Source: an uncultured virus (IMG/VR IMGVR_UViG_3300034072_002247)
Taxonomy: Duplodnaviria; Heunggongvirae; Uroviricota; Caudoviricetes
Strand: one strand, 5' to 3'
IMG/VR virus record: IMGVR_UViG_3300034072_002247
DNA length: 20,000 nt
A program made the translations under genes and the position numbers. This document shows, one piece after another, positions 1,473-20,000 of this stretch. Numbering within the stretch: the stretch's first letter is position 1; each line of letters begins with the position of its first letter. The notes under the pieces were generated by a model. The model made no database searches, was not told the DNA's origin, and saw only the letters and a list, made by a program, of their open reading frames with translations.

Positions 1473-2213
1473 CTAAGTATTTTTTAATTTATTTTTATTT
1501 TTAATATTATCTTTAAAAAAATCGCTCAATAATTCAGGAGATATTTTTAAATCTTCAAGCATATTTCTTCCTTTATGCTCTACTCTAAGTTCAGTTAACT
1601 CGTATATTTCATCTTCATCAGTTATACCTTCGTATTCTTCAAAATAATCTGGTAGTCCATATCCTGTTTGGCAAGAATAATTATCATAATCAAAAACTCC
1701 ATCATCAAAAAGATTTTCAACTTCTAATGGCGTTAATCCTCCAGAATTTTCAATAAACTCTAATGCATGCTGAATTTCATGAGTTAACGTTACTAGATAT
1801 CTATTTAAACAATCTTCTTTATTTAAAAAATACGCTTTATGATTAGTATAAAATTTATTAAAATCATTTATGCTTGCGTTTACTAGAACTATGAATTCAT
1901 CTGCTATATAACTTTCTCCAAGTACACCATCACCATTTGATATATTGAACAAGCCATAAGTCTTTTCAGCAATTTCTTCCTCAAAAAAATGTTTAAAAAT
2001 TTCATTACTATCTACTAATAATATTCTTATTTTAATTTCTTCTGGAAAATCTATTTCTTTATAATTTTCTTTATGTTTATTTTCTATAAATATATTTTTT
2101 TCGTTTAATCTATCTGTTATATGTTCAAATAAATTAACTAACTTAGATTCTTCTTTAAAATTATAATCCGTTAATTCAGATTTAAACTTTTCTATTTCAA
2201 ATTTTATTTTCAT
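1473..2213 (-). CDS. Putative zincin-like metalloprotease (HExxH)
   Basis: TLTHEIQHALE (HEIQH at 1767-1781) with later Glu candidates (ELRVE). ATG2213 lies just after the upstream gene's stop, with GGA upstream. Ends KNKNKLKNT. Confidence 0.65.
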   Translation of the reverse strand: MKIKFEIEKFKSELTDYNFKEESKLVNLFEHITDRLNEKNIFIENKHKENYKEIDFPEEIKIRILLVDSNEIFKHFFEEEIAEKTYGLFNISNGDGVLGESYIADEFIVLVNASINDFNKFYTNHKAYFLNKEDCLNRYLVTLTHEIQHALEFIENSGGLTPLEVENLFDDGVFDYDNYSCQTGYGLPDYFEEYEGITDEDEIYELTELRVEHKGRNMLEDLKISPELLSDFFKDNIKNKNKLKNT

Positions 2214-2215
2214 AG

Positions 2216-5200
2216 TTAATCCATATAAACTCTTAATGTTTGACCAGCTCTTGTACTTAAACCTGTAACACAATTATCATACTGATATGAATCACCATAT
2301 ATATCAAAAATACTTCCTGTTTGGTTACATCTTACACCATTAATATATATTTGTTTATTTGAATAAAGACCATCTGGAGTCCCTGTTGGGAATACTAAAT
2401 TAGTATTGTAAACTACTTCATATAAGCTTACTATTTCATATCCACTATAAATATAACTAGATAAAGCGCCTGCTAGTTGTGCAGACCAACTACTTCCACC
2501 CGGAGCATCTTTGATATATCCAAAAGCGTAAAGATTATAATAGCTAGTATAGTATTGTCCTATATATAAATTTCTTAAGTTTCCTACACCTACTATCATA
2601 TTTTGAGCAGCAGATGTTCTTGTAACTCCATTTAAAGTTTTAGTTGCACTAAAAGAATATGTATATTCACCTATTAATGATGGTGCATTATTTGGAACAT
2701 TCTCTACTAGTGTTGCGCCACTTGATAATGTAGCTGATGGATTTAAAACAGCCGATTTAGAAACATTTATAAATGAACTTGTAGAATTTATAGTTGGATT
2801 TGATATAGTAGGATCAGATTCAACTATTACATTTCTTGTTGTTGTTGAAGTTACACCAACAGAGTTTGTTGCAGTTATTGTATAAGTGTAAGTTCCTGCT
2901 GCTGTCGGTGTAATATTAACGGATGTCGCAGTTCCTAAATCAACGTCAGTAGTTGAAATTCCTGAAGCAGCAGAGTTGGATCTTATTTTATAATTAACTG
3001 CATCTGAAGCACTATAACTCATTGTAAATGCAGCATTAGCGAATACGTTACTTGGCGCTGTTGTTGCTCCAAATACTGGTGCTGCTATAACATTTACAAC
3101 AACACTTCTTAATGTGCTAAATCTTGAAACAGAGTTTAAAGATTTAGTAGCAGCAGCATAATAAGTGTAAGTACCAGCAGTTGCTGGTGCTGCACTTGGT
3201 AATGTTGCATTTGTAGTGTTTCCACTGTCTCTGCCTTGTAATGTTGCACCAGTGCTAAAACCTGAACCAGCAAATGTTAATGCAGCACTTGGTGAAACAT
3301 TAATATTAGTTCCAGCATTTACTGTAAATCCAGTAAATGTTGGATTTGCTTCTACTGTTACGTTTCTTGTTGTAGTTGTAGTTACTCCAACGTTGTTAGT
3401 TGCAGTTATAGTATAGGTATAAGTTCCTGCGGCTGTTGGTGTTATATTAGTTGAAGTAGCAGTTCCTAAATCAACATCTGTTGTAGCTACACCAGAAGCT
3501 GCTATATTTCCACGAATCTTATAATTAATAGCATCACTAGCACTATAAGATAAAGTAAATGCCGCATTAGCAAATACATTGCTTGGTGCTGTAATAGTAC
3601 CAAATACTGGAGCATCGATTACATTTACAACAACGTTTCTTAATGCACTATATCTTGAAACGGAGTTTAAAGATTTAGTTGCAGCAGCATAATAAGTGTA
3701 AGTACCAGCAGTTGCTGGTGCTGCACTTGGTAATGTAGCATTTGTTGTATTTCCACTGTCTCTACCTTGCAATGTTGAACCAGAACTGAAACCAGTACCG
3801 GCAAATGTTAATGCTGCGCTTGGTGAAACATTAATATTAGTTCCAGCATTTACTGTAAAACCAGTAAATGTTGGATTTGCTTCGACTGTTACGTTTCTTG
3901 TTGTAGTTGTAGTAACTCCAGCAGAATTAGTTGCTGTTATTGTGTAAGTGTAAGTACCTGCTGCTGTTGGAGTGATGTTAGTTGAAGTAGCAGTTCCTAA
4001 ATCAACATCAGTAGTAGCTACACCAGAAGCTGCTAAGTTACCACGAATTTTATAATTTACTGCATTACTTGCACTATAGCTCATTGTAAATGCAGAATTA
4101 GCAAATACATTGCTTGGTGCTGTAATTGTTCCAAATACTGGAGAAGCAATCACATTTACTACAACGTTTCTTAAGGCGCTATATCTTGATATAGAGTTTA
4201 AAGATTTAGTTGCAGCAGCGTAGTAAGTATAAGTACCAGCAGTTGATGGTGCTGTCGCTGGTAGTGTAGCATTTGTAGTATTACCACTGTCTCTACCTTG
4301 TAATGTAGCACCAGAACTGAAACCACTTCCAGCAAATGTTAATGCTGCGCTTGGTGAAACATTAATATTAGTTCCACTATTTACTGTAAATCCAGTAAAT
4401 GTTGGATTTGCTTCTACAATCACTGTTTTAGTTGAATCAACTTTAGCATTTGCAGTGTTATATCCACTTAAAGTGTAAATGTAAGTTCCAGAATTTGTTG
4501 GAGTTGTGTTAGTGTTTAAAGAACTTCCTAAATCAACGGCTGTAGTTGGTATTCCAGAATCTGCATTATTAGATTTTATTTCATACTTTGAAACACCAGT
4601 ACCAATCCAAGATAATGTTAATGGAGAATTCGCAAAAACAATATTAGGGCCTGTAAATGAATCAATAACTGGTAATCCTACAACATTAACAGATAATGAC
4701 TGACTTACAGAATCACCGGCACCATTAAATGCTTCTAAAGTATATTGTGTAGTACCAGTAGTTGAAGATGCAACTAAATTTGTTGTTGTTTCGTTTATAA
4801 TATTTCCATTTAACTTGTAAGATACTGCATCTGAAACATCCCAAACGAAATTTAATGGGTCGTTTGGTGAAGCATCAATAGTAGTAGAACTTCCATTAAT
4901 AGTGTATGAGTTAATAACAGCCTGATTATATACATTTATATTAATTGGACTAGAAGAAACAATTGTTCCATTTAAACTTGTTGATTCCAAAGTGAAATCA
5001 AAACTTCCTGAATTATTAAACGTAATGTTTTGAGAGCCAGTAGGAATACCAGAAACAGAACCATATGGATTTAAATTTAATCCTTCAGAATCAGTCACAT
5101 CCCAGCTAAAAGAAATTGAATCACCTTTGGTTATATTTAATTCAGATGCATTAAATGAATTTATAACAGAGTTATTTACAACATCAATAGTTAAATATTC

Positions 5201-5764
5201 AGTTGCATCTGCAATTCCTTCATAACCTTTTGCATTCAATCTAAATGTTGTATCAATTGTAGGATATACATCTAAATTTCCTGATAATGGTAATCCTGTA
5301 CCGACTCCATTATCTATGTCAACATATTCAGCATTTTCAACATTCCAAGATAAATTAACTGGCTGACCTATGCCAATTCTTAATTTATCCGCATTAAAGG
5401 TAATATTTTGGTTTGGTTGTATAACAGTTAAAAATAAATTTTCAATTTTCTTTTGAGAACCTTTTGTTACTTCTATTTCATAGTTTCTTGATGCTAAAGG
5501 AGATAATGTAATAGAGCCAACTTTTCCATATTTACCTAGACCTTTTATATCAACTTCATTGGCATAATCATAATTCCAAGATAAAGTGGAAGAACCACCA
5601 CGATTTATAGAGTTAGGTGATAGAGAAATATTCCCATTGATGGGAGTTTCTTCCATTATAATTCCTTTTGGATCTAATGGAATAATTATTTGATAATCAG
5701 CATAAGCAAAGTTAGCAAAAAAAATTGCTATATATAACTTTTTTATTTTTATATTAACTTTCAT
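2216..5764 (-). CDS. Large secreted/surface adhesin-like protein with tandem Ig/PKD-like beta-sandwich repeats and a distinct C-terminal tip domain
   Basis: Signal peptide (KIKIKKLYIAIFFANFAYA-D) and AAAGGA SD. Ig-like motifs (LSWN, GTYTYTITATN) and Thr/Ala/Ser/Gly-rich composition with internal 177-aa repeats. Confidence 0.85.
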   Translation of the reverse strand: MKVNIKIKKLYIAIFFANFAYADYQIIIPLDPKGIIMEETPINGNISLSPNSINRGGSSTLSWNYDYANEVDIKGLGKYGKVGSITLSPLASRNYEIEVTKGSQKKIENLFLTVIQPNQNITFNADKLRIGIGQPVNLSWNVENAEYVDIDNGVGTGLPLSGNLDVYPTIDTTFRLNAKGYEGIADATEYLTIDVVNNSVINSFNASELNITKGDSISFSWDVTDSEGLNLNPYGSVSGIPTGSQNITFNNSGSFDFTLESTSLNGTIVSSSPININVYNQAVINSYTINGSSTTIDASPNDPLNFVWDVSDAVSYKLNGNIINETTTNLVASSTTGTTQYTLEAFNGAGDSVSQSLSVNVVGLPVIDSFTGPNIVFANSPLTLSWIGTGVSKYEIKSNNADSGIPTTAVDLGSSLNTNTTPTNSGTYIYTLSGYNTANAKVDSTKTVIVEANPTFTGFTVNSGTNINVSPSAALTFAGSGFSSGATLQGRDSGNTTNATLPATAPSTAGTYTYYAAATKSLNSISRYSALRNVVVNVIASPVFGTITAPSNVFANSAFTMSYSASNAVNYKIRGNLAASGVATTDVDLGTATSTNITPTAAGTYTYTITATNSAGVTTTTTRNVTVEANPTFTGFTVNAGTNINVSPSAALTFAGTGFSSGSTLQGRDSGNTTNATLPSAAPATAGTYTYYAAATKSLNSVSRYSALRNVVVNVIDAPVFGTITAPSNVFANAAFTLSYSASDAINYKIRGNIAASGVATTDVDLGTATSTNITPTAAGTYTYTITATNNVGVTTTTTRNVTVEANPTFTGFTVNAGTNINVSPSAALTFAGSGFSTGATLQGRDSGNTTNATLPSAAPATAGTYTYYAAATKSLNSVSRFSTLRSVVVNVIAAPVFGATTAPSNVFANAAFTMSYSASDAVNYKIRSNSAASGISTTDVDLGTATSVNITPTAAGTYTYTITATNSVGVTSTTTRNVIVESDPTISNPTINSTSSFINVSKSAVLNPSATLSSGATLVENVPNNAPSLIGEYTYSFSATKTLNGVTRTSAAQNMIVGVGNLRNLYIGQYYTSYYNLYAFGYIKDAPGGSSWSAQLAGALSSYIYSGYEIVSLYEVVYNTNLVFPTGTPDGLYSNKQIYINGVRCNQTGSIFDIYGDSYQYDNCVTGLSTRAGQTLRVYMD
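2825..4417 (-). repeat. Three tandem 531-bp (177-aa) intragenic repeats with diverged flanking half-units
   Basis: ttactgtaaa(t/a)ccagtaaatgttggatttgcttc begins at 3319, 3850 and 4381, a period of 531. Confidence 0.95.
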
Positions 5765-5882: not shown

Positions 5883-7070
5883 ATGAATCATTTAAGTTTA
5901 AATTATAATGAAGTTCAAAAATTATTAATAGATAATGAAAATCAAAATATCTATTATGATAAAATAAAAGTTCAAGTTCAATATTCTGTTCTAGATAATA
6001 AAGGAAATGATTTTAAACAAATAGCAGAAGAAAATGGCTATGGTATAAAAATAAATGGAGTTGAACATATTATATTTTCAAATTCGTATGATGACTCTTC
6101 CACACCATATATTTTAGTAGAAAAAAATTCAGAAAATATAAAATCTGTTAAAGTAATAGAGCAAGGTTTATTTTCATATGAAAGAGAGTTATCTATAGTA
6201 AATAAATATATAACAAAAAAAATGGGTATTAATGGTAAGCCTTTTGGTAATAATGATGAATTAAATAATAAGTTATCAGAGCACTTAGAAACTCATAAAA
6301 ATAGATATTTAAAATCATTTAAAGAAGGTTTAATAGAAAATTTAAATTCTGTTATTGCTAGTGATAAAAACATTAAGTTTATAAATTTAAAAGATGATCA
6401 TATTCATGAAATGAATGATTTATTTATACAACATACTGATGAAATATTTTCTTTGTATAGTCAAGAATATAAATTTATAATGGAACAAGAAAGAAAAGAC
6501 TATTTAAGAAAACAAGAGTTAGAAAGAGAACTAAAGAAAAAATTAATGGAAGAAAAAGAAAAAGAAGCTGTTAAAGAACAAAATGAATTTTCTTTGTCTA
6601 AATTTGGTTATTACACAGAGATTGAAACAGATTTAAAAAATAAATCAGTTGAATTAAATATATTCAATAAAGATAACTTAAAAACTTTTAATTATAAATT
6701 TCCTTTAACATTAAAAGAAGTAGAGTATTTTGATCAATCTACTGGATTAGATGAAGTTTTTTCATTTTATATTGTAGATAAAAAATTTGAAAACAATATA
6801 AATAAATCAGATTATAAGAAATTTTATCATGCTATATTTGAATTGAAAGATAGTATATTAGTAGAAAAAAATCAATTAGAAGGATTAGATATTGTAGCTA
6901 ATAGAGATCTTTCTGATTTTGAAGGCACTGATAATGTTCTTTCTGTTGAAAAGAAAAATTCTTTATCTAAAACTATATACGAAAATCACTCTACAACTGA
7001 TAATAGACTAGTATATATAAATGAAGAAATGAAAGAAAAATTTAACAACAATAAATTAAAGATTAAATAA
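5883..7070 (+). CDS. Hypothetical protein with central charged coiled-coil
   Basis: 395-aa ORF with GAGGA SD and extended -10 TGATATAAT upstream. EQERKDYLRKQELERELKKKLMEEKEKE segment. Ends NNNKLKIK. Confidence 0.8.
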   Translation: MNHLSLNYNEVQKLLIDNENQNIYYDKIKVQVQYSVLDNKGNDFKQIAEENGYGIKINGVEHIIFSNSYDDSSTPYILVEKNSENIKSVKVIEQGLFSYERELSIVNKYITKKMGINGKPFGNNDELNNKLSEHLETHKNRYLKSFKEGLIENLNSVIASDKNIKFINLKDDHIHEMNDLFIQHTDEIFSLYSQEYKFIMEQERKDYLRKQELERELKKKLMEEKEKEAVKEQNEFSLSKFGYYTEIETDLKNKSVELNIFNKDNLKTFNYKFPLTLKEVEYFDQSTGLDEVFSFYIVDKKFENNINKSDYKKFYHAIFELKDSILVEKNQLEGLDIVANRDLSDFEGTDNVLSVEKKNSLSKTIYENHSTTDNRLVYINEEMKEKFNNNKLKIK

Positions 7071-7081
7071 ATTTAATGATT

Positions 7082-7110
7082 AAAAAAATCCTCCATTTGG
7101 AGGTTTTTTT
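7082..7110. terminator. Bidirectional rho-independent terminator
   Basis: A7-t-CCTCC-attt-GGAGG-T7 between convergent genes. Confidence 0.8.
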
Positions 7111-7393
7111 ATTTAGCTAAACTTTTTATCTGATTGACTTCAGATATATATGCAACTATAGAGTTGCGACTTTTATTAATTAATATTTGGAATCTATCTA
7201 ATTCAATTTTTTGTTCTTCAAGTTTTTTAATTCCTTCAATAACAGAAAAATGATCTTTTCCTATATTAATTGCTTTATCTAAATAACTGAATAAACCTTT
7301 ATTATCTTCGTTTATTCTGCAACTTTTAAGAAAGTCGATTGATTGCTTCAATTGCAAACTCAATATATCAAAATCACTAACTAATTTACTCAT
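7109..7393 (-). CDS. Small helical hypothetical protein
   Basis: AGGTG SD 6 nt before ATG7393, preferred over the GTG at 7402. TTGAAT-16-TATACT upstream. Confidence 0.7.
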   Translation of the reverse strand: MSKLVSDFDILSLQLKQSIDFLKSCRINEDNKGLFSYLDKAINIGKDHFSVIEGIKKLEEQKIELDRFQILINKSRNSIVAYISEVNQIKSLAK

Positions 7394-7490
7394 ACATATC
7401 ACCTAATATAATATTCACTAACAATTTTAGTATACCTCATTTTTAAACAAATTCAACCTTTTGACAAAAAAATTAAAACTTTTAAAAATA

Positions 7491-7519
7491 AAAAAAGCCT
7501 TATTTATCAAGGCTTTTTT
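7491..7519. terminator. Rho-independent terminator
   Basis: AAAAAAGCCTT-atttatc-AAGGCTTTTTT just downstream of the 7539..7778 (-) gene. Confidence 0.85.
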
Positions 7520-7538
7520 AAATGCTGTTAAAAATAAA

Positions 7539-7778
7539 TTAAACTATTTTTATACCTTTTGTTGTATTAAAACTAGCCTTAATATCAGTGTTATCAACTA
7601 TGTTTAATTTTTCAAAAATATTTTTTGGAAATATTTCTTCTAATGAAAAATTTTCTGTCTCTCCTAAAGATTTTAACTCTTTCAATAAATCTGGCATGAA
7701 TAAATTTTCTTGTGTCTCTATAATATTTTTAAGAATTTTTGCGCCAGTTTCGGTGATGATTTGTCCTATCTTTTCCAT
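7539..7778 (-). CDS. Small hypothetical protein
   Basis: 79 aa with AAGGA SD and a downstream terminator. Ends TTKGIKIV. Confidence 0.75.
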   Translation of the reverse strand: MEKIGQIITETGAKILKNIIETQENLFMPDLLKELKSLGETENFSLEEIFPKNIFEKLNIVDNTDIKASFNTTKGIKIV

Positions 7779-7877
7779 TTTAAATTCCTTTTATTATTGT
7801 GCTATTTTTTTCATTCTATCATTAAAAATAATAAAAAAAAGATATTATTTTAAAAAAAAGTTAAATATATCAACAAT

Positions 7878-8123
7878 TTATTTATTTTTATGATTTTGAA
7901 TAATTATTTCTCTTAAATTTTTTATATTATTTATTATTAAATTTTCAATATTCTTGTCGTATTTATTATTTTTAAGAATGTTAAAATCATTTTTTATTTT
8001 TTCTATATGGTAGGCATATTTAATTAATCTTTTATGATTTATAGAATCTTTATTTGTTTTATTTATATTATTTTTTATAAAAGTTTCTATTTTATTTATT
8101 TCAGTGTTTATAACTTCTATCAT
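7878..8123 (-). CDS. Small basic Asn/Lys/Ile-rich hypothetical protein
   Basis: 81 aa with AAGGA SD, following the 8150..8638 gene. Confidence 0.55.
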   Translation of the reverse strand: MIEVINTEINKIETFIKNNINKTNKDSINHKRLIKYAYHIEKIKNDFNILKNNKYDKNIENLIINNIKNLREIIIQNHKNK

Positions 8124-9278: not shown

Positions 9279-9833
9279 ATGAATGATGTCTTAAAACTTG
9301 AAAATTATTTAAAAAATAATGGTTATGATATTATTTCATCTTTTAAAAGTCCTTCTTCAATAATATTTAAATACAATAAAAAACAATTTATTAAATTTAA
9401 TAAAAATTTAAAGAATATACCATTAAATAAATTTAAATTAAGAAATGGATATTGTTCAAATATTCAAGAAAAATCAATCGTATCTCATAAAAATTATGAA
9501 TTTATAAAAAATGTTTATAATTATATTTCTAATTTTAACTATTTAATATTAGGTGCTGCTTTTTGTAATACATATATTGATATTGAAAGTTTAGATAAGT
9601 ATGCTTATTTAAAATTAGATACTGGTAATGAAATCTATTATTTATCTAATATAAATGAATTTCCAGAAAGGTTTGTGTTTAACAAAAAAGGAATTGTTAA
9701 CTTTAATATTATTAGAATCGAAGAAAACAATTATAAAGAAATAATTGAAAACATATTTTTTTCAGAATTCAAAAGATATAATGAAAAAGCAACTCTTGAA
9801 GATTTTAAATTAGAATTGATTAAAAACTATTAA
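9279..9833 (+). CDS. Hypothetical protein, C-terminal-Tyr tag group
   Basis: 184 aa with GGAG SD. Ends LEDFKLELIKNY. Confidence 0.8.
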   Translation: MNDVLKLENYLKNNGYDIISSFKSPSSIIFKYNKKQFIKFNKNLKNIPLNKFKLRNGYCSNIQEKSIVSHKNYEFIKNVYNYISNFNYLILGAAFCNTYIDIESLDKYAYLKLDTGNEIYYLSNINEFPERFVFNKKGIVNFNIIRIEENNYKEIIENIFFSEFKRYNEKATLEDFKLELIKNY

Positions 9834-9843
9834 GGATTAAAAA

Positions 9844-10479
9844 ATGTATAATGAAACTTTAAAAAAGTATTTAGATTATTTGATTTCAAATTTAAATAAA
9901 AATAATGACATCTTTTTAGTTGAAAAGAAGTCTTCTGATTCTTTTGTTAAATATGAAGATGAAGAAAATGATATATTAGCAACTTTAACCACCTCAACTT
10001 TAAGATTTAGACATCAAAATAAAACTTTTCTTATTGAAGATAAAAGTTCTATTTTTGGAAAAATAAATAATACTGTATTTACAAGTCAAGAACTTCATTC
10101 TGATCCTTTTAAAAACTTTCCAAACTTTTTCAATGATTTCTTGAGTTTGTATAACATAACTAAAAAACTATTTAGTTCACAATCTCTTATTACATATAAT
10201 ATTATTTCTGGTGAAATCTATCATATTATTAGTTATATGTATCCTGATGAAATTGATAGATACTTAACAATAACTAATCATCCTGAATTATTAAGTTTTC
10301 ACAATACAAATATTAAACATATTATTCAAGATGATATTTTTGACATGCATTTTGTTTTAAATACTAACCATGAAAATTTTAAAAAAGATTTTAATGATTT
10401 TAAATTTAATGTATATAAAGAAGAGTTTCCAGAAAAAAATATCGATGATTTTAATTTAGATTTAATAAAAGAATATTAA
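9844..10479 (+). CDS. Hypothetical protein, C-terminal-Tyr tag group; paralog of 10491..11120
   Basis: 211 aa with TAAGGA SD overlapping the previous stop. Ends FPEKNIDDFNLDLIKEY. Confidence 0.85.
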   Translation: MYNETLKKYLDYLISNLNKNNDIFLVEKKSSDSFVKYEDEENDILATLTTSTLRFRHQNKTFLIEDKSSIFGKINNTVFTSQELHSDPFKNFPNFFNDFLSLYNITKKLFSSQSLITYNIISGEIYHIISYMYPDEIDRYLTITNHPELLSFHNTNIKHIIQDDIFDMHFVLNTNHENFKKDFNDFKFNVYKEEFPEKNIDDFNLDLIKEY

Positions 10480-10490
10480 GGATTTTTATA

Positions 10491-11120
10491 TTGAATAGAA
10501 ATTTAAATAAATATTTTTCAGTTATACAAAAAAAATTAGAATACTCTAGTATAATTAAAAAATCTGATCTTTTATTTATAAAAGAAAAAAATTCATTAAA
10601 ATATAAAGACGAAAGCAGAAATTTTTCTGTTACTATTACTAAAGAATGTTTATTCTTGACAGTTAAATTTAAATCTTTTTTTATAAAAACTAAATGTAGT
10701 GTCTTTGGAGATCTAAAAAATACAGTATTTACTTCTCCTGAATTTCATTTGGACGATTCATACTATTCTTTAGACTTTTCAACTTATTTTTCAAATTTAT
10801 ATAATCTAACAGGAGATAAATTTATACCTGTAAAAACAATAACATATAACTTAAAATCATCTAAAATATATAATATAATACATTACCAATATCCAAATAA
10901 ACTTAATAGCTATTTAACGATTACTGATCATCCTGAATTACTTAAATTTCATAGCAAATACTTAATAAATTCAGAATTTAATAATGAACATTATATTTTA
11001 AACATTAATGACAAAAATTTTAAAGAATGTTTTGATAGTTTTATATTAAAATTTTATTTTGAAAAATTTCCAGAAAAAAATATTGATGATTTTAAAATTG
11101 AAAGCCTTATATATTATTGA
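10491..11120 (+). CDS. Hypothetical protein, C-terminal-Tyr tag group; paralog of 9844..10479
   Basis: TTG start after TAAGGA. Shares NTVFTS, ITYN, YLTIT.HPELL.FH and FPEKNIDDF. Ends IESLIYY. Confidence 0.85.
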   Translation: MNRNLNKYFSVIQKKLEYSSIIKKSDLLFIKEKNSLKYKDESRNFSVTITKECLFLTVKFKSFFIKTKCSVFGDLKNTVFTSPEFHLDDSYYSLDFSTYFSNLYNLTGDKFIPVKTITYNLKSSKIYNIIHYQYPNKLNSYLTITDHPELLKFHSKYLINSEFNNEHYILNINDKNFKECFDSFILKFYFEKFPEKNIDDFKIESLIYY

Positions 11121-11173
11121 TTTATTTTAAAGATCAACTATAATTTTATAAATTTAATAAAAAAGGATAAAAA

Positions 11174-11974
11174 ATGCAGTCAAAACAAGTTGAAGCAAAA
11201 TTTTTAAAAAATCATTTTCAAAGTTATTTAAGCTTTAATAGAGATCTTAGTATAAAAGATTTAAGTGTTAAAAAAATACTATCAAATGAACCTTTAGAAT
11301 TTTACTTTTATGATTCTATAAAAGGTTCTTATCAAAATGAAATAAAAAATAAAGTTCCAATGAATGTAAAAAGTATTTGCTTAAATGAAATTTTAAATAT
11401 ATTAACCGAACGTTTAGATTACTTAAAATTGTTAATTGATGAACAATTTAATAGTAAATTTAGACAGATAACAAAATTTCTTAGAAACAATGATGAACTT
11501 AATTCATTAATTTCTGAGCAGTCTAAAATTCAAAAATTGATAGCTAATCCTTCAGAAATAGAAAAAAACATCTTAGTCGAAGTAAGTTTAATAGACCAAA
11601 ATACTTTATATTCTATTCCTTTTAATACTTTGGAATATGGTCAAAATGTTTATATTGTAACTCAAAGTTTTAATTCATATCTTGAAATAAAGAAATATCA
11701 AGTTTCAGATATAATTATAATAAATACAAAAAATGATTCTGAATTTAACACTGATTTTGAATTTAATTACTACTTGAAGAATATTGATACTAATGAATTA
11801 ATTGAAATTAGTTATTATAATTTTAGAAACTTTGATGGTACTAAATCAAACATCAATAATGGGTTTTTATTTGTTGATTTAGAGTCTGCCAAGGAACACT
11901 GTATTCTTTCATTAAATAATCTTAAAAATACTATAGTTGACAAAATAAAAGAGATTCAAAATTATGATAAATAA
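11174..11974 (+). CDS. Hypothetical protein (coiled-coil plus beta-rich C-terminal domain)
   Basis: 266 aa with AAGGA SD. Overlaps the next gene by 11 nt. Confidence 0.8.
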   Translation: MQSKQVEAKFLKNHFQSYLSFNRDLSIKDLSVKKILSNEPLEFYFYDSIKGSYQNEIKNKVPMNVKSICLNEILNILTERLDYLKLLIDEQFNSKFRQITKFLRNNDELNSLISEQSKIQKLIANPSEIEKNILVEVSLIDQNTLYSIPFNTLEYGQNVYIVTQSFNSYLEIKKYQVSDIIIINTKNDSEFNTDFEFNYYLKNIDTNELIEISYYNFRNFDGTKSNINNGFLFVDLESAKEHCILSLNNLKNTIVDKIKEIQNYDK

Positions 11975-12590
11975 TTTTATTAAAGATCAAAAACAATTTT
12001 ATTCTAAATTAATTTTTGAAAATATTTTTGAAAGTATAAATAAGATAGAAGAAAATAATTATATTTATACTCCTGTAGGAGCATATTTAATAAAAAAAGA
12101 TAATAAAATAAATAATAATATAGATATCTTTACCATTATTAATTCAAAACTAAAAAATCATACTTCAACTTTTGGAACTACTGGAAGAGGTAAATCTGTC
12201 TTTTTAGAAGATATTTTTTATTCTGATTTGTTAAATAAAATTCCTAACATTGTTAAAACTTTAAAATTTAAAAGTGAACTTGCATATTATTTTTTTAGTT
12301 TAATAGAACTTAATTTAAAAGATGTTAATAAATCTATATTTTTATTAAATTTAAGTATATATAAAGATGTTTCTTATATAATAAACACCAATAATATTGA
12401 ATCTTTTAGCTTTAATTTTAATATAAAAATTAATAACTTATTTGTAGAAGATAATAATTTATTCAAAGAAGATCTTCTTAAAATTTCTTATATTTTAGAA
12501 ACTGATTCTTTTGATGAAGACATTTTAAACAATTTGAATTCAGAAAACTATTCAGATTATATTAAACTTTCAAACATCGAATTATATTAA
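11964..12590 (+). CDS. Hypothetical protein, C-terminal-Tyr tag group, with isolated Walker A-like motif
   Basis: 208 aa. GTTGRGKS at 12174-12197. Ends SDYIKLSNIELY. Confidence 0.75.
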   Translation: MINNFIKDQKQFYSKLIFENIFESINKIEENNYIYTPVGAYLIKKDNKINNNIDIFTIINSKLKNHTSTFGTTGRGKSVFLEDIFYSDLLNKIPNIVKTLKFKSELAYYFFSLIELNLKDVNKSIFLLNLSIYKDVSYIINTNNIESFSFNFNIKINNLFVEDNNLFKEDLLKISYILETDSFDEDILNNLNSENYSDYIKLSNIELY

Positions 12591-12675
12591 AAATCTTTTA
12601 TATATTATTTTTTACTTGAAAAAAAGTTTTCATTTGTAATAATATAAATAAAATTGAAAAATAAAAGGAGACAAC

Positions 12676-13623
12676 ATGTTAAAAAAATCAGCTTTAGTAA
12701 TTTCTTTAGCTATAATTGCTGGATGTAGTTCTGTAAGTTCTTATGAAAAAATTGCTTCAAATACAGAATATACTTATGACCATTCTTTAAAACAGTCAGT
12801 TATTAAAGGACCTATAGATGAATCAAAACCACAAGGTGCAAGAGTTGAAGACTTTAAATATGATTTAATTATAAAAGATTCTACTGTTTTTGCTAATGTT
12901 TCTTTTAACTACAAAGATAAAAGCCCAAGAGTATACACACATGTTGTTGACTCAATGGGGGTTAGTTATCAACTATTAAACCAAAAAGATAAAGTATTAG
13001 ATTGTGGAATTAATGGAACAATAAATTATGGAACTTGTAATTTTGAACAGTCTTTTACTTTCCAAATGCCTAGAGATAATCGTTATCAGTTCTCTTTAAT
13101 AGGTAAATCAAGTAATAGTAGTGTTTATTTTAAAATCAATAAAGATTATATTGCTGTAATGGATGATTTTATGTATAGATTAAAAACTCCAAGAGCCGAT
13201 TATGATGAAGCAACTATAAAAAAAGAAACACTATTAGCAGCTAAACCAGCACCAGTACAAAAACCTTCTGTTTCTATTCCACAACCAATTGTAGGTAATG
13301 CTTTAGAACAAGAAAAAAACAATGCACCTAAAGTTTCTACAGTTGCTATAAATAAACCATTAATTGTAAATAATCCTCCTATTGTTAAGCAATTTGAGAA
13401 TAATAAACAATGTAATTGTTCAACTGGAAATGCTTTAACTGTTTCCAATAAACCTGTTTTAGAACCAATGGCAAAAACACCTTTCTGCTCAACTATGAAG
13501 TTTAAAAACTCTTGTGCTGAGATAACTAGTTGTAGAGAGGCTTATGACCAGTACTCTTGTGGTAATAAAAAGTTAGATCCTACAAGAAAAGGTATGCCTT
13601 GTCCTAATGTATGTAAACTTTAA
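12676..13623 (+). CDS. Lipoprotein with Pro-rich linker and C-terminal Excalibur-like domain
   Basis: Lipobox IIAG-C17 and AGGAG SD. C-terminal C..KNSCAEITSCREAY...CG...LD....G.PCP.VC matches the proteobacterial Excalibur pattern. Confidence 0.8.
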   Translation: MLKKSALVISLAIIAGCSSVSSYEKIASNTEYTYDHSLKQSVIKGPIDESKPQGARVEDFKYDLIIKDSTVFANVSFNYKDKSPRVYTHVVDSMGVSYQLLNQKDKVLDCGINGTINYGTCNFEQSFTFQMPRDNRYQFSLIGKSSNSSVYFKINKDYIAVMDDFMYRLKTPRADYDEATIKKETLLAAKPAPVQKPSVSIPQPIVGNALEQEKNNAPKVSTVAINKPLIVNNPPIVKQFENNKQCNCSTGNALTVSNKPVLEPMAKTPFCSTMKFKNSCAEITSCREAYDQYSCGNKKLDPTRKGMPCPNVCKL

Positions 13624-13626
13624 AAT

Positions 13627-13654
13627 AAAAACCGCTTAGGCGGTTTTATTTTTT
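13627..13654. terminator. Bidirectional rho-independent terminator
   Basis: AAAACCGC-ttag-GCGGTTTT between convergent genes. Confidence 0.85.
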
Positions 13655-14305
13655 ATTCAAATCTTTAATTTTTTCTATTATACCTTTTTCACTAAATCTA
13701 AAGTAATTACTATAGATTAAATCCCAATTATTATAATTATCTATTAATATTTTATATTTTTTATTTTTACTGTTTATTTCTAAACTTACATTGTTTTCAT
13801 AATCGCATTCTTTAAAATTATTATCTTCTCTTATTTCATAACTAAAATCACATATTTTTACATTGTATGGATAAAATTCTTTATAATATTTTTCAATTAA
13901 TATTTGATTATCAATTTCTAGTCCTTCAATTTTATTTAATAATATTTTTATATTTGCTACATCTTTTTTTAAAAAATAACCAAATAAAAAATTATCTATT
14001 ATTTTTTTATTGTTATCAAATTTTATAAAATAATCTATATTAAGATTATTTTCTTCATTCTTATAATTAAACTGAATTTCCGTTATATAGTCCAAACTAT
14101 ACTTCTCTTTTATATTTATTGATTTTTTATAAACATTAATTTGATTTGAATTATTATTATAAACTAAATTTTTAACACCATTATCTTTTAAATACTTATT
14201 TAATGATATTATATATTCTTTGTTCATTTGTTCATTTTCTTTATAAATATAAAATCCAGAAAAAATAGCTAATATAAAAAACACTAAAACTATATTTTTT
14301 CCCAT
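13646..14305 (-). CDS. Hypothetical protein with single N-terminal membrane anchor
   Basis: IVLVFFILAIFSGFYIY helix. AAGGA SD favours ATG14305 over GTG14320. Confidence 0.7.
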   Translation of the reverse strand: MGKNIVLVFFILAIFSGFYIYKENEQMNKEYIISLNKYLKDNGVKNLVYNNNSNQINVYKKSINIKEKYSLDYITEIQFNYKNEENNLNIDYFIKFDNNKKIIDNFLFGYFLKKDVANIKILLNKIEGLEIDNQILIEKYYKEFYPYNVKICDFSYEIREDNNFKECDYENNVSLEINSKNKKYKILIDNYNNWDLIYSNYFRFSEKGIIEKIKDLNKK

Positions 14306-14368
14306 TCTTAATTCCTTCACTTGAACTATTAGAATATGATTTTTACCATTTTATATACAAAAAGTCAA

Positions 14369-14397
14369 TTGCATTAATATCTTAAAAATGTTATAAT
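14369..14397 (+). promoter_or_regulatory. Sigma70-type promoter for the 14420 operon
   Basis: TTGCAT-17-TATAAT with extended TG. Confidence 0.7.
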
Positions 14398-14419
14398 AAC
14401 GAACATTTGGAGAAAAAGA

Positions 14420-15133
14420 ATGCAGTTAACAGATAAAATAAAAAATGTCCTTTATCATCATTCTCATGAAATTCAGGATAATATTGTTCAAAAAGACAGT
14501 AGCAATAACTGGCACATGACTCGTTATATTCGAAAAAATATTATTCCTGAAAGTCCTATATCTTTTGAAAAAATTGAAGATCAGATTTTTTTTGTAATTT
14601 ATAAAAATGTTAAAATTGCTATATACGATGAAAGATCTTTATGTTTGTTTCAAGTTCTTAACCCTTATGTAGAAAATAAAAAAGTAATTTTATCTGAAAT
14701 TGAAATGTTTCATTACTATTTGAAATCTATATTAAAAAATTATCTTTTTTTTATGTATATTATTGAAGAAAATAATAATTATATTGATTACATTAAATTT
14801 TTAGATGATGAAAAAACATTTTATTCTGAAATTGTTTCTAAACCAAGTAATCCTGTTAATCTTTATGTTTCTATCACTAATCGTAAAGTTATTGTTAAAA
14901 TTAAAAATAAGTATATTAAAGATTTAGAATTAACATTATATTCTGGAGATGATTTCTTTGAATTTTCTATTACAAAAGAAAAAGATAAAGCAAAAGTTCA
15001 TAAAAATTTTAAATCATTTCTAAATTACTTTAATAATTATTTGTATGAAAATATAATTTATAAAACTACAAATATTAAAGTTGAAGATTTTGATAAAGAA
15101 CAATTAAAATTATTTAGGATTCTATCAGTATGA
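14420..15133 (+). CDS. Hypothetical protein, C-terminal tag group (variant ending V)
   Basis: 237 aa with GGAG SD. Ends NIKVEDFDKEQLKLFRILSV. ATGA overlap with the next gene. Confidence 0.8.
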   Translation: MQLTDKIKNVLYHHSHEIQDNIVQKDSSNNWHMTRYIRKNIIPESPISFEKIEDQIFFVIYKNVKIAIYDERSLCLFQVLNPYVENKKVILSEIEMFHYYLKSILKNYLFFMYIIEENNNYIDYIKFLDDEKTFYSEIVSKPSNPVNLYVSITNRKVIVKIKNKYIKDLELTLYSGDDFFEFSITKEKDKAKVHKNFKSFLNYFNNYLYENIIYKTTNIKVEDFDKEQLKLFRILSV

Positions 15134-15915
15134 ATTTTATTGATCTTTCAGAAGAAAAAGATGATTCAAATATATCAATTGAACTATTTGATGAAAATTC
15201 ATCTTTTTCAGTTAAGTTTAATAATGTAGAGAAATGTTTTAAAAAAGATATTTTTTATTCTATTTTTAATTTTTTTAAAGAAAACTTAACAAAACGAGTT
15301 CCTTTATTAATTGATTACAATGAAGAATCTGGAATTTCTTTAGTTTCTATAATTGAAAAAAACAATAAATTAGATTTAGGTTATATTTTTGATATTCAAA
15401 AAATATCTGATGTAGAATCTGTATCTTTTTCTATTAGTAATATTTATTATAATGAAGAAAAAATATTTAAATTTGATCATTTTAGAGATATTAAAGTTAT
15501 CTTTAGTCAGTTTTTAAATTTTATGATTGTGATGTATGGATTAAAACATTCATATAAAATACATAATATAATTGAAAATGAGAAAAATTTATTCAACTAT
15601 TTACAAGATTTTTTAGATAATAAATACATTGATTTATTTGACTTTATGAATTTTAACATTGATAATAAAACAGCAAAATTAAGAATTCATGATTTAAATA
15701 TAGACTTAAATATAGATTTAACTTATAATTATTCCAATAAAAATTTAATTTTGAATAATAATGATAAAACTTTTATATATGAAAATAAAAATTTTTTTTT
15801 AAAGTTTTTTTCTAAAGACCTTTACTCTTTAGATATAGAAAAAAAAATAGAAATACCTTATGAAGAATTTAATTTTAAACATTTATATTTGTTAAATATC
15901 ATAAATCACTATTGA
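15130..15915 (+). CDS. Hypothetical protein, C-terminal-Tyr tag group
   Basis: 261 aa, coupled by ATGA with AGGA upstream. Ends EIPYEEFNFKHLYLLNIINHY. Confidence 0.8.
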   Translation: MNFIDLSEEKDDSNISIELFDENSSFSVKFNNVEKCFKKDIFYSIFNFFKENLTKRVPLLIDYNEESGISLVSIIEKNNKLDLGYIFDIQKISDVESVSFSISNIYYNEEKIFKFDHFRDIKVIFSQFLNFMIVMYGLKHSYKIHNIIENEKNLFNYLQDFLDNKYIDLFDFMNFNIDNKTAKLRIHDLNIDLNIDLTYNYSNKNLILNNNDKTFIYENKNFFLKFFSKDLYSLDIEKKIEIPYEEFNFKHLYLLNIINHY

Positions 15916-15945
15916 AATATATTTCTATTATGTTAAATTATAAAA

Positions 15946-16082
15946 ACATCGTTTCTTCAGCAAAATAATAAATAAATAAGTCTTATTGAAACGAATACTT
16001 TAATATACAGAACTTAATTTTCATAACTCTCTTTTATTATAAGACTTAAAATTCTTTAATCCCCAATTTGGGGATTTTTTTT
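15946..16082 (+). ncRNA. Candidate structured small RNA (~135 nt)
   Basis: Intergenic, preceded by TTGAAA-16-(TG-t)TAAATT and ending in a terminator. Pairings TCGTTTC/GAAACGA and TAAGTCTTAT/ATAAGACTTA. Confidence 0.4.
16059..16082 (+). terminator. Rho-independent terminator
   Basis: ATCCCCA-att-TGGGGAT followed by a T run. Confidence 0.85.
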
Positions 16083-16172
16083 AAACATTTGTTTTATTTT
16101 ATTATCTTTTTTTCTATTGAAATCAATTATTAATAATTTAAAATTATAATATAAGCATTAAAATGGTGGAGC

Positions 16173-16718
16173 ATGCAAAACAAGGATAGTTTTGATAAAG
16201 GCTTTATTAATGAAATAAATACTTTTACTGTTAATCCAAGTATAAACCTTGGCTATTATCCAGAACTTAATAATGAAAAAATTGAATCAATTATTTTTAA
16301 ATCTCTTTTGAAAGAAAAAATAATAGAATTAATATTTAAAGATATAAATATGAAATTAAATGATTTAAATTTTATTAATATATTTTTCAATAATCAAATT
16401 TGTTTAAAAACAATATCTAAAGAATATATAATCAATAGTATAAATCACGATGGTAATCATTATTATTTTGAACATTTAATTAAGGATTATATTAACAACT
16501 CTGAAGTTTCTTTTATTTATAAAATCATAAATAAAAAACATGATGATTTTTTAATACAAAAACAAACTATAAAGTTTGATAACAATCTTATAGAATATTC
16601 TGATTTTTCATTGTTTAAAAAAATAATTTTTGAAAATATAGTTTGTAAATGTTTAAATAAAAACATTAATGAAATAAAACTTTCAGATTATAGACTTCTT
16701 TGGATTTTTAATTATTAA
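16173..16718 (+). CDS. Hypothetical protein, C-terminal-Tyr tag group
   Basis: 181 aa with GGTGGAG upstream. Ends NKNINEIKLSDYRLLWIFNY. Confidence 0.75.
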   Translation: MQNKDSFDKGFINEINTFTVNPSINLGYYPELNNEKIESIIFKSLLKEKIIELIFKDINMKLNDLNFINIFFNNQICLKTISKEYIINSINHDGNHYYFEHLIKDYINNSEVSFIYKIINKKHDDFLIQKQTIKFDNNLIEYSDFSLFKKIIFENIVCKCLNKNINEIKLSDYRLLWIFNY

Positions 16719-17277
16719 TATACTTTAATTCAATTAATCTATTTGTAACTATACCTATATTAGAAACTTCTAACATTCTTGCTATGTTTCCTATATTACA
16801 TTCTACTTTCATTTCTCTTAATCTATTTATTGTATTAAATATTACTTCTTTTGGCATTAATAATCTTTTTGTAAATTCTTCTGCTTTTTTTTCATGCTCT
16901 CTTACACATTCACCACGAATGCTTTTTTCGTCTATATGTACGCATTTTGATTTTTCATTATCTAAAAATCCGCTCGTTATATAACTTAATGAATAAGATA
17001 TACATAATCTTAAAGATTCTATTGTCATTCCTTTTTTATAATGCAATATATATTCATTATCTATATTACTTATTGTTGCAAAAAAATTATTAAATTCTTT
17101 ATCTATACTTGTATCAAATTCTATAAATTCAAATTTAAACTCTTTTATATTTAAAGCTAAATCTATTACATTTATTTGAAAATCTATTTTTTTTAAATAT
17201 TTTTCAAGCAAATATTCAGGTGTTAATTTATAAATTCTTTTAATTCTAGCATTATTTAAATCAATTATATTACTCAT
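16708..17277 (-). CDS. ImmA/IrrE (DUF955)-like protein, apparently catalytically inactive
   Basis: QINVIDLA, YILHY, SLRLCISYSLSY (aligned to RFTIAHELGH), EKKAEEFTKRLLMP and IARMLEVS..IVTNRLIEL follow the family layout. Start at MSNIIDL preferred. Confidence 0.7.
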   Translation of the reverse strand: MSNIIDLNNARIKRIYKLTPEYLLEKYLKKIDFQINVIDLALNIKEFKFEFIEFDTSIDKEFNNFFATISNIDNEYILHYKKGMTIESLRLCISYSLSYITSGFLDNEKSKCVHIDEKSIRGECVREHEKKAEEFTKRLLMPKEVIFNTINRLREMKVECNIGNIARMLEVSNIGIVTNRLIELKYINN

Positions 17278-17393
17278 TAAAAAATTCCATTTTCTTAATT
17301 CCTTAATTTTAGTATAACACTTTTTTAAAATTTCAAACATTGATTTAATATAATAATTAATTTAATATAATAATATGTAATAATTTATATATT

Positions 17394-17939
17394 ATGAAGA
17401 TAGCTATTAAAAATAATTTTCAAGATGAATTATTCTTTTATCAAATTCTAAGTTGTATTGATCATTTTTTATTAGTTGACTTTAAGTTAACTGGCCTTGA
17501 TGGTAAATATAAAGATTATATTTTAAAATTAATTCATAATTTTAGGTCGATAAGAAAAAACTTAATTCATGAACCTAATCTTATTTTAGAAATATATCCA
17601 CATGATGAAAAATATTTAAATAACATACATAACATAAAATCATTGTATGACTATCCATTAGATATATCTAATAAACAATATTCTTTTTATATAGATTTTT
17701 CAGATTTTTATAATTTATCATTTTATGAATTTGAAAAAGGTACAATATTTTCAAAACTATCTTTAAATAAAAATGTTATCTCCGCAGAAGAAATAAAAAC
17801 ATCTATGTTATTTGATAATTTTCAATCTAATATAAATTTTTATTTAATAGAACCTATTAAAAAATTATTAGATACTGATAAAGATTTTTACCAAATATCT
17901 AAAGAAGAATTTCAAATATTAAAATTAATTCAATACTAA
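17394..17939 (+). CDS. Hypothetical protein, C-terminal-Tyr tag group
   Basis: 181 aa with no clear SD (possibly leaderless or short leader). Ends QISKEEFQILKLIQY. Confidence 0.75.
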   Translation: MKIAIKNNFQDELFFYQILSCIDHFLLVDFKLTGLDGKYKDYILKLIHNFRSIRKNLIHEPNLILEIYPHDEKYLNNIHNIKSLYDYPLDISNKQYSFYIDFSDFYNLSFYEFEKGTIFSKLSLNKNVISAEEIKTSMLFDNFQSNINFYLIEPIKKLLDTDKDFYQISKEEFQILKLIQY

Positions 17940-17954
17940 AATATAAACTAAAAA

Positions 17955-17983
17955 TTGACATTTTTTTATTTTTTTTATATAAT
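17955..17983 (+). promoter_or_regulatory. Consensus sigma70 promoter
   Basis: Perfect TTGACA-17-TATAAT. GGAG SD at 17997-18000. Confidence 0.85.
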
Positions 17984-18009
17984 TTTCTATCAAATTGGAG
18001 TAATTCATA

Positions 18010-18981
18010 TTGTTAGAAGTCACTGATTTAAAATTTAATATCTTTTTAAGAGATCATCTAAAAAATGATGTTTTTTTAGAAGTTTTTTATTTCGATAAAA
18101 AATTAAAAATAGATCTTGGGCCTAGTAAAGATCTTAAAGAACAAAAAGATTTTTCTGTTATAATTTATAAAGAAAACAATGAAATAGGAAACTTTAAAAT
18201 TAAATATTTAAGTTATCCATTTTTATTTTCAGTTTATGATTATTATGATTATAAAAAATTTGATTTTAAAAGATTAAAAAAAGAATTAATTGATTTCATT
18301 AATTACTTTCCAATATTTTTATCAGATAGCTTAATTCATAGTTTTAATATTATTTACAAAAATTTCTCAAATTATACTTTAAGTTCTGACTTTAATATTA
18401 AAGGTTTGAACTATGAAATATTTCCTCAAGTTAAAATCCATGACTCTTCAAATTATTTAGAGCCAGCCAATAATAGTAAAAAAAATATATCAGAAAGAAA
18501 AATAAATTATATTTTTAGAGATCAAATTTTAACTACTTTAAGCATAAGCGATTTACTAAACTTCTATAAAGTTGATAAGTTCTATATAAATTCAGTTCTT
18601 AGCTTTTTAAAATCTTTTGAATTTACTCCTTTTTTAACTGAAAATAAATTAGGATTCTTTTTGTTCATTCCTGAAATAAGTTTTGTTTACTTTTTATATT
18701 TTGATAATAAAATTAAAAAATATAAAGTTTTAAATAATAATTCCCAAATCTTTACAGAATTTATTTTAGGTCTAAATTTTGATAATAATTATCATTTTGA
18801 AAATGAATTAAAAAATTGTATAAAAATAAATTTAAAAAATAATGAAGAAAACTTAAAATTTTTTATTCAATCCTGTATTAAAAATCTTTATTTAAGTCCT
18901 ATTTTAAAAGAAATATTATCCTATAATGAATATACAGAATTAGAATATAAAATTTCTTTAACAAAAATTATAAATTATTAA
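18010..18981 (+). CDS. Hypothetical protein, C-terminal-Tyr tag group
   Basis: 323 aa with TTG start. Ends ELEYKISLTKIINY. Confidence 0.8.
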   Translation: MLEVTDLKFNIFLRDHLKNDVFLEVFYFDKKLKIDLGPSKDLKEQKDFSVIIYKENNEIGNFKIKYLSYPFLFSVYDYYDYKKFDFKRLKKELIDFINYFPIFLSDSLIHSFNIIYKNFSNYTLSSDFNIKGLNYEIFPQVKIHDSSNYLEPANNSKKNISERKINYIFRDQILTTLSISDLLNFYKVDKFYINSVLSFLKSFEFTPFLTENKLGFFLFIPEISFVYFLYFDNKIKKYKVLNNNSQIFTEFILGLNFDNNYHFENELKNCIKINLKNNEENLKFFIQSCIKNLYLSPILKEILSYNEYTELEYKISLTKIINY

Positions 18982-19666: not shown

Positions 19667-19685
19667 CCTTAAAAGGAGATTAATA

Positions 19686-20000
19686 ATGAGTAGAAGTTAT
19701 AAACATATAAATAAAGATTGTTCTAAAAATAACTATGCAAAACATATTTATTTTAGTTGGTATTACAAAAATCCGTATTATTATGATGTAGAGAGCATAT
19801 CTGATAGTAATCAAAGTTTTAATGCTTTGTATCATTTTGATTGGTATTCCAGTAGCGCACCTAAAAGTTTTAGAAAAGAACTTAATAGGTCTAAAAAGAG
19901 CAAAGATAAACAAGAAATTATCAGAAGATTAAAAAATAATACTTTTGATGATATGCCTAAATTTAAATGGTTCAATGATGCAAATTACTTGTATTGGTAA
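19686..20000 (+). CDS. Small basic aromatic-rich protein (MSRSYK... type)
   Basis: AGGAG SD at 19674-78 before ATG19686. Motifs SSAPKSFRKELNR and DANYLYW. Confidence 0.75.
   Translation: MSRSYKHINKDCSKNNYAKHIYFSWYYKNPYYYDVESISDSNQSFNALYHFDWYSSSAPKSFRKELNRSKKSKDKQEIIRRLKNNTFDDMPKFKWFNDANYLYW

Follow-up and report, generated by a model that had tools for sequence, protein, structure and literature searches.

Why do nine dissimilar proteins encoded at one locus end alike? The question is raised by a 20,000-nucleotide stretch of DNA (hereafter the window) from the uncultured virus record IMGVR_UViG_3300034072_002247 of IMG/VR, located on a contig of 1,042,066 bp and with ~20% guanine plus cytosine, in which a preliminary description made from the letters alone had noticed nine plus-strand open reading frames (ORFs) with similar C-terminal ends. 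All nine are present where it placed them, with the ends it quoted. We found that these ends form a short tail set in register from the stop codon, that the tail is one dialect of a tail carried by ~1/5 of the ORFs of sister elements, and that it probably serves as a docking handle for a single partner. Below, tail positions are counted backward from the stop (-1 is the last residue), genes are named by their first coordinate, and three related sequences are called L003 (a syntenic 90-kb contig), G001 (437 kb) and G002 (181 kb, of which 180 kb were analysed); the last two each have a guanine-plus-cytosine (GC) content of 31%.

Nine proteins with a common C-terminal end

Aligned without gaps from the stop, the nine ends share a motif in which the last residue is Tyr in eight (Tyr stands at -2 in one of the nine), position -4 is always Ile or Leu (Ile in seven, Leu in two), -7 is Leu or Ile in 9/9, and -9 is hydrophobic in 9/9. 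Upstream, Asp or Glu occupies -11 in six of the nine and -10 in five, and acidic residues are frequent at -15 too. The tail region is mildly acidic and has no Glu block: positions -25 to -8 of the nine hold one to four Glu and two to five Asp plus Glu, the mean for Asp plus Glu in other ORFs being 2.6. The shared sequence signal is limited to the last ~15 residues of these proteins, which we call tail carriers:

9279..9833, plus strand: tail carrier of 184 amino acids, ending in LEDFKLELIKNY, motif in register
9844..10479, plus strand: tail carrier of 211 amino acids, with an AlphaFold2 model and an orthologue in L003
10491..11120, plus strand: tail carrier of 209 amino acids, tandem paralogue of 9844 (41%), missing from L003
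11964..12590, plus strand: tail carrier of 208 amino acids, with a Walker-A-like stretch GTTGRGKS at residues 70-77
14420..15133, plus strand: tail carrier of 237 amino acids, ending in LFRILSV, the sole end without Tyr, with an orthologue in G001
15130..15915, plus strand: tail carrier of 261 amino acids, the poorest fit to the motif in its register
16173..16718, plus strand: tail carrier of 181 amino acids, ending in RLLWIFNY, its stop overlapping the convergent gene 16708-17340
17394..17939, plus strand: tail carrier of 181 amino acids, with a structural model and a set of orthologues
18010..18981, plus strand: tail carrier of 323 amino acids, ending in LTKIINY in the motif register

End statistics were computed on the 24 non-shadow ORFs out of the 34 called in the window. 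Eight of these 24 end in Tyr, against a background Tyr frequency of 6.1% (binomial p 5.6e-5), which bears out the expected enrichment of terminal Tyr; the further claim that no other ORF ends in Tyr holds among the 24, and fails for one shadow ORF (19680-19913, minus strand). The four-position hydrophobic pattern occurs at 9/24 ORF ends versus 1.6% of internal 15-mers. None of 2000 random draws, each maximised across all 1365 four-position patterns, reached nine ends (the top draw reached six), and the motif is enriched over its null as the preliminary description supposed.

Could such ends be an artefact of composition, produced by AT-rich ORFs that happen to close on TAT-TAA? GC content is 16-25% across the carrier region, and the motif signal per protein is weak: leave-clan-out, 14420 and 15130 rank only in the top 6% of internal 12-mers, and leave-out hidden Markov models of the tail recover no members among the nine (maximum 7.6 bits). 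Against this explanation stand the end statistics, the retention of tails in orthologues, and the synonymous variation of the ends, which encode Tyr by TAT or TAC and stop by TAA or TGA, so that the constraint acts on the protein. The explanation is refuted by the independent scoring matrix and the alignment of 17394 orthologues described below, and we give it next to no weight.

As had been described, the bodies do not align apart from the pair 9844 and 10491, to both of which 9279 has an additional weak match (expectation value, E, 0.13). The nine have no family match above cut-off in Pfam, PHROGs or NCBIfam, and no long hydrophobic stretch (peak 19-residue hydropathy 0.77-1.53). We measured selection against L003 for three carriers and eight neighbours. 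The ratio of nonsynonymous to synonymous substitution rates (dN/dS) was 0.24 for 9279 (76% identity), 0.27 for 9844 and 0.41 for 11964, versus 0.05-0.19 for seven neighbours; the eighth neighbour is identical. The nine ORFs are real genes, and carriers evolve fast under purifying selection. In the same comparison 34/36 of the residues in the last 12 positions of the carriers are identical (11/12 in 9279, 12/12 in 11964), with whole proteins at ~75%; the neighbours' ends are well kept too, and therefore tail retention in L003 alone does not single out the tail. The earlier proposal, that the bodies vary and diverge fast and that the free C-terminus is under constraint, gains its support from dN/dS together with the matrix and the orthologue alignment.

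Several carriers have individual features. In 11964 the Walker-A-like motif is retained in L003, the protein has a weak Pfam match to FtsK_SpoIIIE (E 6e-4, under the cut-off), and the stretch gives matches of E 0.05-0.1 only against plasmids; it may be a captured fragment of an FtsK/HerA-type ATPase. The 16173 orthologue P0018 has an 89% identical body and 12/12 identical last residues, and 16173 also matches a G001 carrier weakly (E 4e-5). Two further sequences relate to 9844: P0005 is an orthologue with a 20-residue deletion and the tail retained, and P0010 has the body of 9844 joined to the tail of 10491 and reading onward. These two structures reflect either recombination between tails or assembly errors.

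Two dialects of one tail in related elements

A DNA pattern for tails with Met at -4 (Met-4 tails) matched 101 stretches, of which 80 had flanking sequence and two, G001 and G002, had tail clusters. Met stands at -4 in 101/485 ORFs of G001 and 44/179 of G002, an eight- and a ninefold enrichment, and in 5/369 ORFs of a control Vibrio megaplasmid (400 kb of 882 kb). Between 20 and 40 kb, G001 holds orthologues of nine window neighbours in the same order at 29-54% identity, together with orthologues of the carriers 14420 (23% identity, E 8e-9) and 17394 (32% over the first 109 amino acids). G001 is a syntenic, orthologous relative of the window. The 14420 orthologue ends in LVNIFEY, in identical register. 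At the position of 9279, G001 has a gene with Met at -4 and a weak alignment (E 0.19), and at that of 15130 a gene of 259 amino acids that ends in INAMIDY and does not align; it has no ORF at the position corresponding to 11964, and no relative of 18010 was found in either G001 or G002.

We next asked whether the window tails and the Met-4 tails are one and the same. A scoring matrix trained on 114 Met-4 tails only, none of them from the window, gave the nine a mean of +3.6 at shift 0 with -4 omitted, and -3.5 to -14.8 at shifts 1-4; by this matrix the nine outscore the remaining 15 ends (p 1.4e-4, or 0.013 when -4 and -1 are ignored). The window tails fit the register of the Met-4 class, with an acidic residue at -15, Asp, Glu, Asn or Ser at -11, a hydrophobic residue at -9, Leu, Ile or Val at -7 and a hydrophobic residue at -1. 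Met is found at -4 in 0/9 of them, and we regard them as a variant of the class because their orthologues carry Met at -4. In the alignment of 17394, the window clade (three sequences) ends in EEFQILKLIQY or EEFEILKLIKY. In the remaining five rows, which hold four distinct tails, Met occupies -4 and the last residue is Ile or Phe; the tail is ungapped throughout. Across clades, 1-4/12 of the last residues are identical and the bodies are ~30% identical.

The two forms are divided between lineages. Across the syntenic G001 stretch Met is at -4 in 4/5 carriers versus 0/9 in the window (p 0.005). When carriers were chosen without -4 and -1, which in the window gave seven of the nine plus ORF 8150, Met at -4 was found in 79/95 sister-element carriers versus 0/8 window carriers and Tyr at -1 in 15/95 versus 6/8. 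These counts are not independent: the nine include three relatives, and they also supplied part of the rule by which carriers were picked. The alignments show that the window tail is the Met-4 tail in another dialect, in which Ile or Leu has replaced Met at -4 and Tyr has replaced Ile at -1. Genes with unalignable bodies changed their ends alike, which fits the prediction of one shared reader. Terminal Tyr, to which the preliminary description drew attention, closes 8/9 of the window tails; it is not the key to the class, as in sister elements position -4 is mostly Met and the last residue mostly Ile.

What kind of element carries these genes? G001 and G002 encode tRNA synthetases, TolC-type efflux, a chemoreceptor, TnpB, NAPRTase, ART-PolyVal proteins and multicopy DEDDh exonucleases (eight DEDDh_C genes in G001, two in G002), and neither has a Terminase_6N match. 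They look like megaplasmid fragments. IMG/VR files both as viruses (98% and 58% complete). One cluster of carrier orthologues includes a member on a 1,539,155-bp contig. A 492-amino-acid G002 carrier (L249, 5353-6831) matches a 216-amino-acid G001 ORF (L219, 47-697) at 71% over the first half, and is possibly a fusion of two units. DNA near-identical to the window's occurs in runs of 13 studies, which may include the window's own, from subsurface, hot-spring, fresh-water and wastewater samples; no RNA dataset is among these runs.

Other searches returned little beyond close relatives. No relative was found in GTDB genomes or in three single-protein scans of viral sequences, and a DNA pattern for the Tyr dialect gave 54 loci, none with a tail cluster. 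A RING/TerD-like neighbour, tried as a locus marker and rejected, gave 36 loci, likewise none with a tail cluster. Profile A2, built from the window tails, had 14 matches among 8000 scored candidates, all orthologues of its own inputs, and four among 1.84 billion proteins, again only orthologues of its inputs. Run on five records it gave four matches, of which one, in G001, is at a C-terminus (the end of the 14420 orthologue, E 0.0065); the match in G005 is internal to an ORF, and those in G003 and G004 have the same score and span.

A candidate docking handle and its reader

A tail shared by so many proteins might be no more than the last helix of a common domain. By this explanation the carriers would all belong to a single hyper-diverged fold family, their tail being a structural helix that caps a shared strand-meander/helix domain, with no outside reader. 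The 9844 model (AlphaFold2; mean predicted local distance difference test, pLDDT, 78; predicted template-modelling score, pTM, 0.71) has a helix, a five-strand meander, a helix, three strands, a helix, a strand, a helix at 179-194 and a tail helix at 200-210. The 17394 model (pLDDT 87, pTM 0.85) has a strand, two long helices, a strand, a helix, a four-strand meander, a helix at 136-159 and a tail helix at 170-180. Compared at the level of secondary structure, both close with strands followed by a long helix and then the tail helix. Carriers also have a narrow length range (154-350 amino acids, 5th-95th percentile; coefficient of variation 0.25 versus 0.64), as one decayed fold would predict, and a distinctive composition poor in Ala, Gly and Trp; their homologues mostly end tail-like; and the counterparts at the position of 15130 have lost all similarity yet kept their length (261 versus 259 amino acids), so that failed alignment does not show unrelated origin. 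Set against this, the two models have different N-terminal halves (a beta-meander versus two long helices), and a profile built on the 60 residues preceding the tail does no better than shuffles on the nine (p 0.46) and scores the G002 carriers weakly (p 0.02-0.08). A helix that packs on its own domain, moreover, does not have to lie at a set distance from the stop, and it requires no near-invariant Met and no coordinated switch among genes that evolve separately.

Fold searches with the two models gave no match (Foldseek E above 0.001; best Z 6.2 and 4.8), and rows naming PC4/PUR, MMOD, frataxin and anti-CRISPR folds have weak scores and were not taken as evidence. The ESM Atlas gave no usable match in a search made with poor models, and a homodimer prediction for 17394 scored 0.00, or 'no answer'. 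Since both models end strand-helix-helix, we keep the common fold, which the preliminary description named as one refutation of its proposal, as a real though minority possibility.

We consider it probable that the tail is instead a docking handle that a single partner recognises; the binding, the single reader and the functions of the bodies we infer. The last ~12-15 residues would form a short amphipathic helix set from the free C-terminus and serve as a common handle. The element would encode many small, soluble, non-enzymatic alpha/beta proteins, a large library in which each member combines a fast-evolving body that binds its own target with a constant handle for the partner. The narrow lengths and the depletion of Ala, Gly and Trp would point away from enzymes. 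With tails removed, 121 carriers form 96 BLAST groups, and no Pfam domain was found at E 0.001 in 112 Met-4 carriers, the comparison being 77/137 other ORFs of at least 300 amino acids from G001 and G002 with a Pfam match, in sets that are not length-matched. In the window lineage the pocket of the partner would have changed and the handles followed jointly, from Met to Ile or Leu at -4 and from Ile to Tyr at -1.

Who might the reader be? We rank three candidates: a coupling complex, then an AAA+ protease or scaffold, then a sliding clamp or polymerase. The first, tentatively the most likely of them, is a coupling complex that belongs to a conjugation system of the Dot/Icm kind; through it the library would be exported to recipients or to cells nearby. 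This candidate leads because the pMEGA megaplasmids, compared below, encode one and because effector signals of type IV secretion systems (T4SSs) are usually C-terminal.

The second candidate is rather unlikely: the tail would dock on an intracellular AAA+ protease or chaperone, the carriers being adaptors that bring host proteins to degradation, or the tail a degron of short-lived proteins. A variable body with a constant tail is an adaptor-like arrangement. G002 encodes a 765-amino-acid Clp-type AAA+ protein, G001 encodes an Hsp70 and several peptidases, and ClpP is encoded by pMEGA4 together with three FtsH-like proteins (10.1101/2025.09.30.679422). Such genes are, however, common on giant elements, and the tail is absent from the Vibrio control. 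The third candidate, a sliding clamp or polymerase, is less probable still. It has a precedent in phage T4, whose gp43, gp55 and gp33 bind the clamp through hydrophobic, acidic C-termini, interchangeable epitopes for one partner on unrelated proteins (PMC2988020). The T4 tails, on the other hand, belong to three phage ligands on flexible linkers, whereas here ~1/5 of the ORFs of a plasmid-like element carry a tail predicted to be a helix beside a folded domain. No clamp is among the Pfam matches of the 137 long ORFs of G001 and G002, a scan that left shorter ORFs outside and included no dedicated clamp search.

Several points count against a handle read by one partner, and against an exporting reader in particular. 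The closing elements common to both models and the narrow spread of lengths are shared with the capping-helix explanation, and the dialect counts are interdependent, as said. Met is about twofold scarcer in the window (1.1% versus 2.3%), and AT drift may therefore drive part of its loss; the change from Ile to Tyr is not AT drift, because both residues have AT-only codons and Ile is the commoner (10.8% versus 6.1%). In the G001 orthologue of 14420, Ile already occupies -4 and Tyr is already the last residue. Many known effectors have recognisable domains, unlike the 112 carriers. No reader of the tail was found, which qualifies the earlier proposal of a single partner even though such a partner is the best reading of the concerted switch, and a TraG-D_C coupling-protein match is present in neither of the two fragments, G001 and G002. 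Membership of the pMEGA type is a resemblance in gene content and size, not in sequence. Finally, the Glu-rich E-block near the C-terminus that is read by DotM, itself a mark of only a subset of Dot/Icm substrates (PMC9302130), is missing from the window tails (one to four Glu in 18 residues).

A single shared handle would account in one step for a large group of orphan genes on megabase plasmids. If the reader is a conjugation machine, other bacteria receive from these plasmids some hundred proteins or more, a set far exceeding the handful reported for an F plasmid (PMC8406263). More speculatively, and somewhat less likely than the coupling complex itself, the tail may be a private address system by which giant conjugative plasmids, through a reader that they encode themselves, load up to 1/5 of their proteins, a library of novel small binders, for delivery into other cells, lineage dialects (Met/Ile or Ile-Leu/Tyr) being orthogonal so that co-resident plasmids do not export each other's proteins.

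Neighbouring genes and known systems

The genes around the carriers are varied. At 2216-5764 (minus strand) lies a 1182-amino-acid repeat protein with weak Ig-like matches and 29-38% GC in more AT-rich surroundings; it is missing from the same site in L003, has a 463-amino-acid relative elsewhere in G001, and looks like a mobile surface-protein cassette. The conserved protein at 16708-17340 (minus strand), whose end overlaps that of 16173, is 43% identical to its G001 counterpart and has weak PHROG matches; we take it to resemble ImmA/IrrE proteins, and it has no HExxH motif. An orphan at 1473-2273 (minus strand), retained in L003, does have one (THEIQH) and is a possible zinc protease. The protein at 12676-13623 (plus strand) has a lipoprotein-like start, a Cys-rich end and 41% identity in G001, with no match in plasmids or GTDB genomes. 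A RING/TerD-like protein of the SCO0854 family (by a match below cut-off) lies at 1-1470 (plus strand), and its relatives occur on Variovorax and Vibrio plasmids of 0.8-0.9 Mb. L003 has a 535-amino-acid TnpB-like ORF (by eye) at 6482-8089 (minus strand), where the window has only a small ORF, 7878-8123.

Does the tail belong to a known class of C-terminal signal? The tail of HbYX proteasome activators has Tyr next to last. It shares with the window tail a terminal or near-terminal aromatic residue, and the suggested parallel fails on register, as Tyr is last in 8/9 window tails. The outer-membrane beta-signal is an alternating hydrophobic strand on exported beta-barrels. There too a terminal or near-terminal aromatic residue matters; the window tails differ in having helical spacing (a helix in both models), on carriers without a long hydrophobic stretch.

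Dot/Icm signals come closer. T4SS effector signals are usually C-terminal (PMC10025392), and in Dot/Icm systems a short acidic and hydrophobic C-terminal signal is found on very many dissimilar proteins (PMC9302130, PMC10025392, PMC10100965), within the last ~20-50 residues; that of the window is within the last ~15. Vir/Dot/Icm genes are also present on low-GC megaplasmids of comparable size. What sets the window tails apart is a register that is fixed and positions that hardly vary; no T4SS consensus is given in the reviews, in the parts available. The DNA searched here, in which G001 and G002 are fragments, yielded no secretion system.

The pMEGA megaplasmids of Enterobacteriaceae are of megabase size and low GC (26% in pMEGA4) and have Vir/Dot/Icm genes and a coupling protein; their content includes TnpB, efflux pumps, NAPRTase, vWA proteins and multicopy RNase-H-fold genes, without phage hallmark genes (10.1101/2025.09.30.679422). 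The window's megabase contig and low GC are similar, as are the host-like accessory genes and the lack of a Terminase_6N match in its syntenic relative G001, and much of the content recurs in G001 and G002. The window differs in being more AT-rich and in the water, wastewater, hot-spring and subsurface origin of near-identical DNA; one G001 gene tried has no match in E. coli genomes. The words 'C-terminal' and 'tail' do not occur in the main text of the pMEGA paper (10.1101/2025.09.30.679422), and we found no description of the tail in the literature covered, mostly without subscription journals and with the pMEGA supplements in part. New here are the Ile-Leu/Tyr form, the orthology that ties both forms into one tail, and the megaplasmid-like setting. 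The tail lies outside every described signal family tested; if the docking-handle reading holds, it acts in the manner of known C-terminal docking and export signals.

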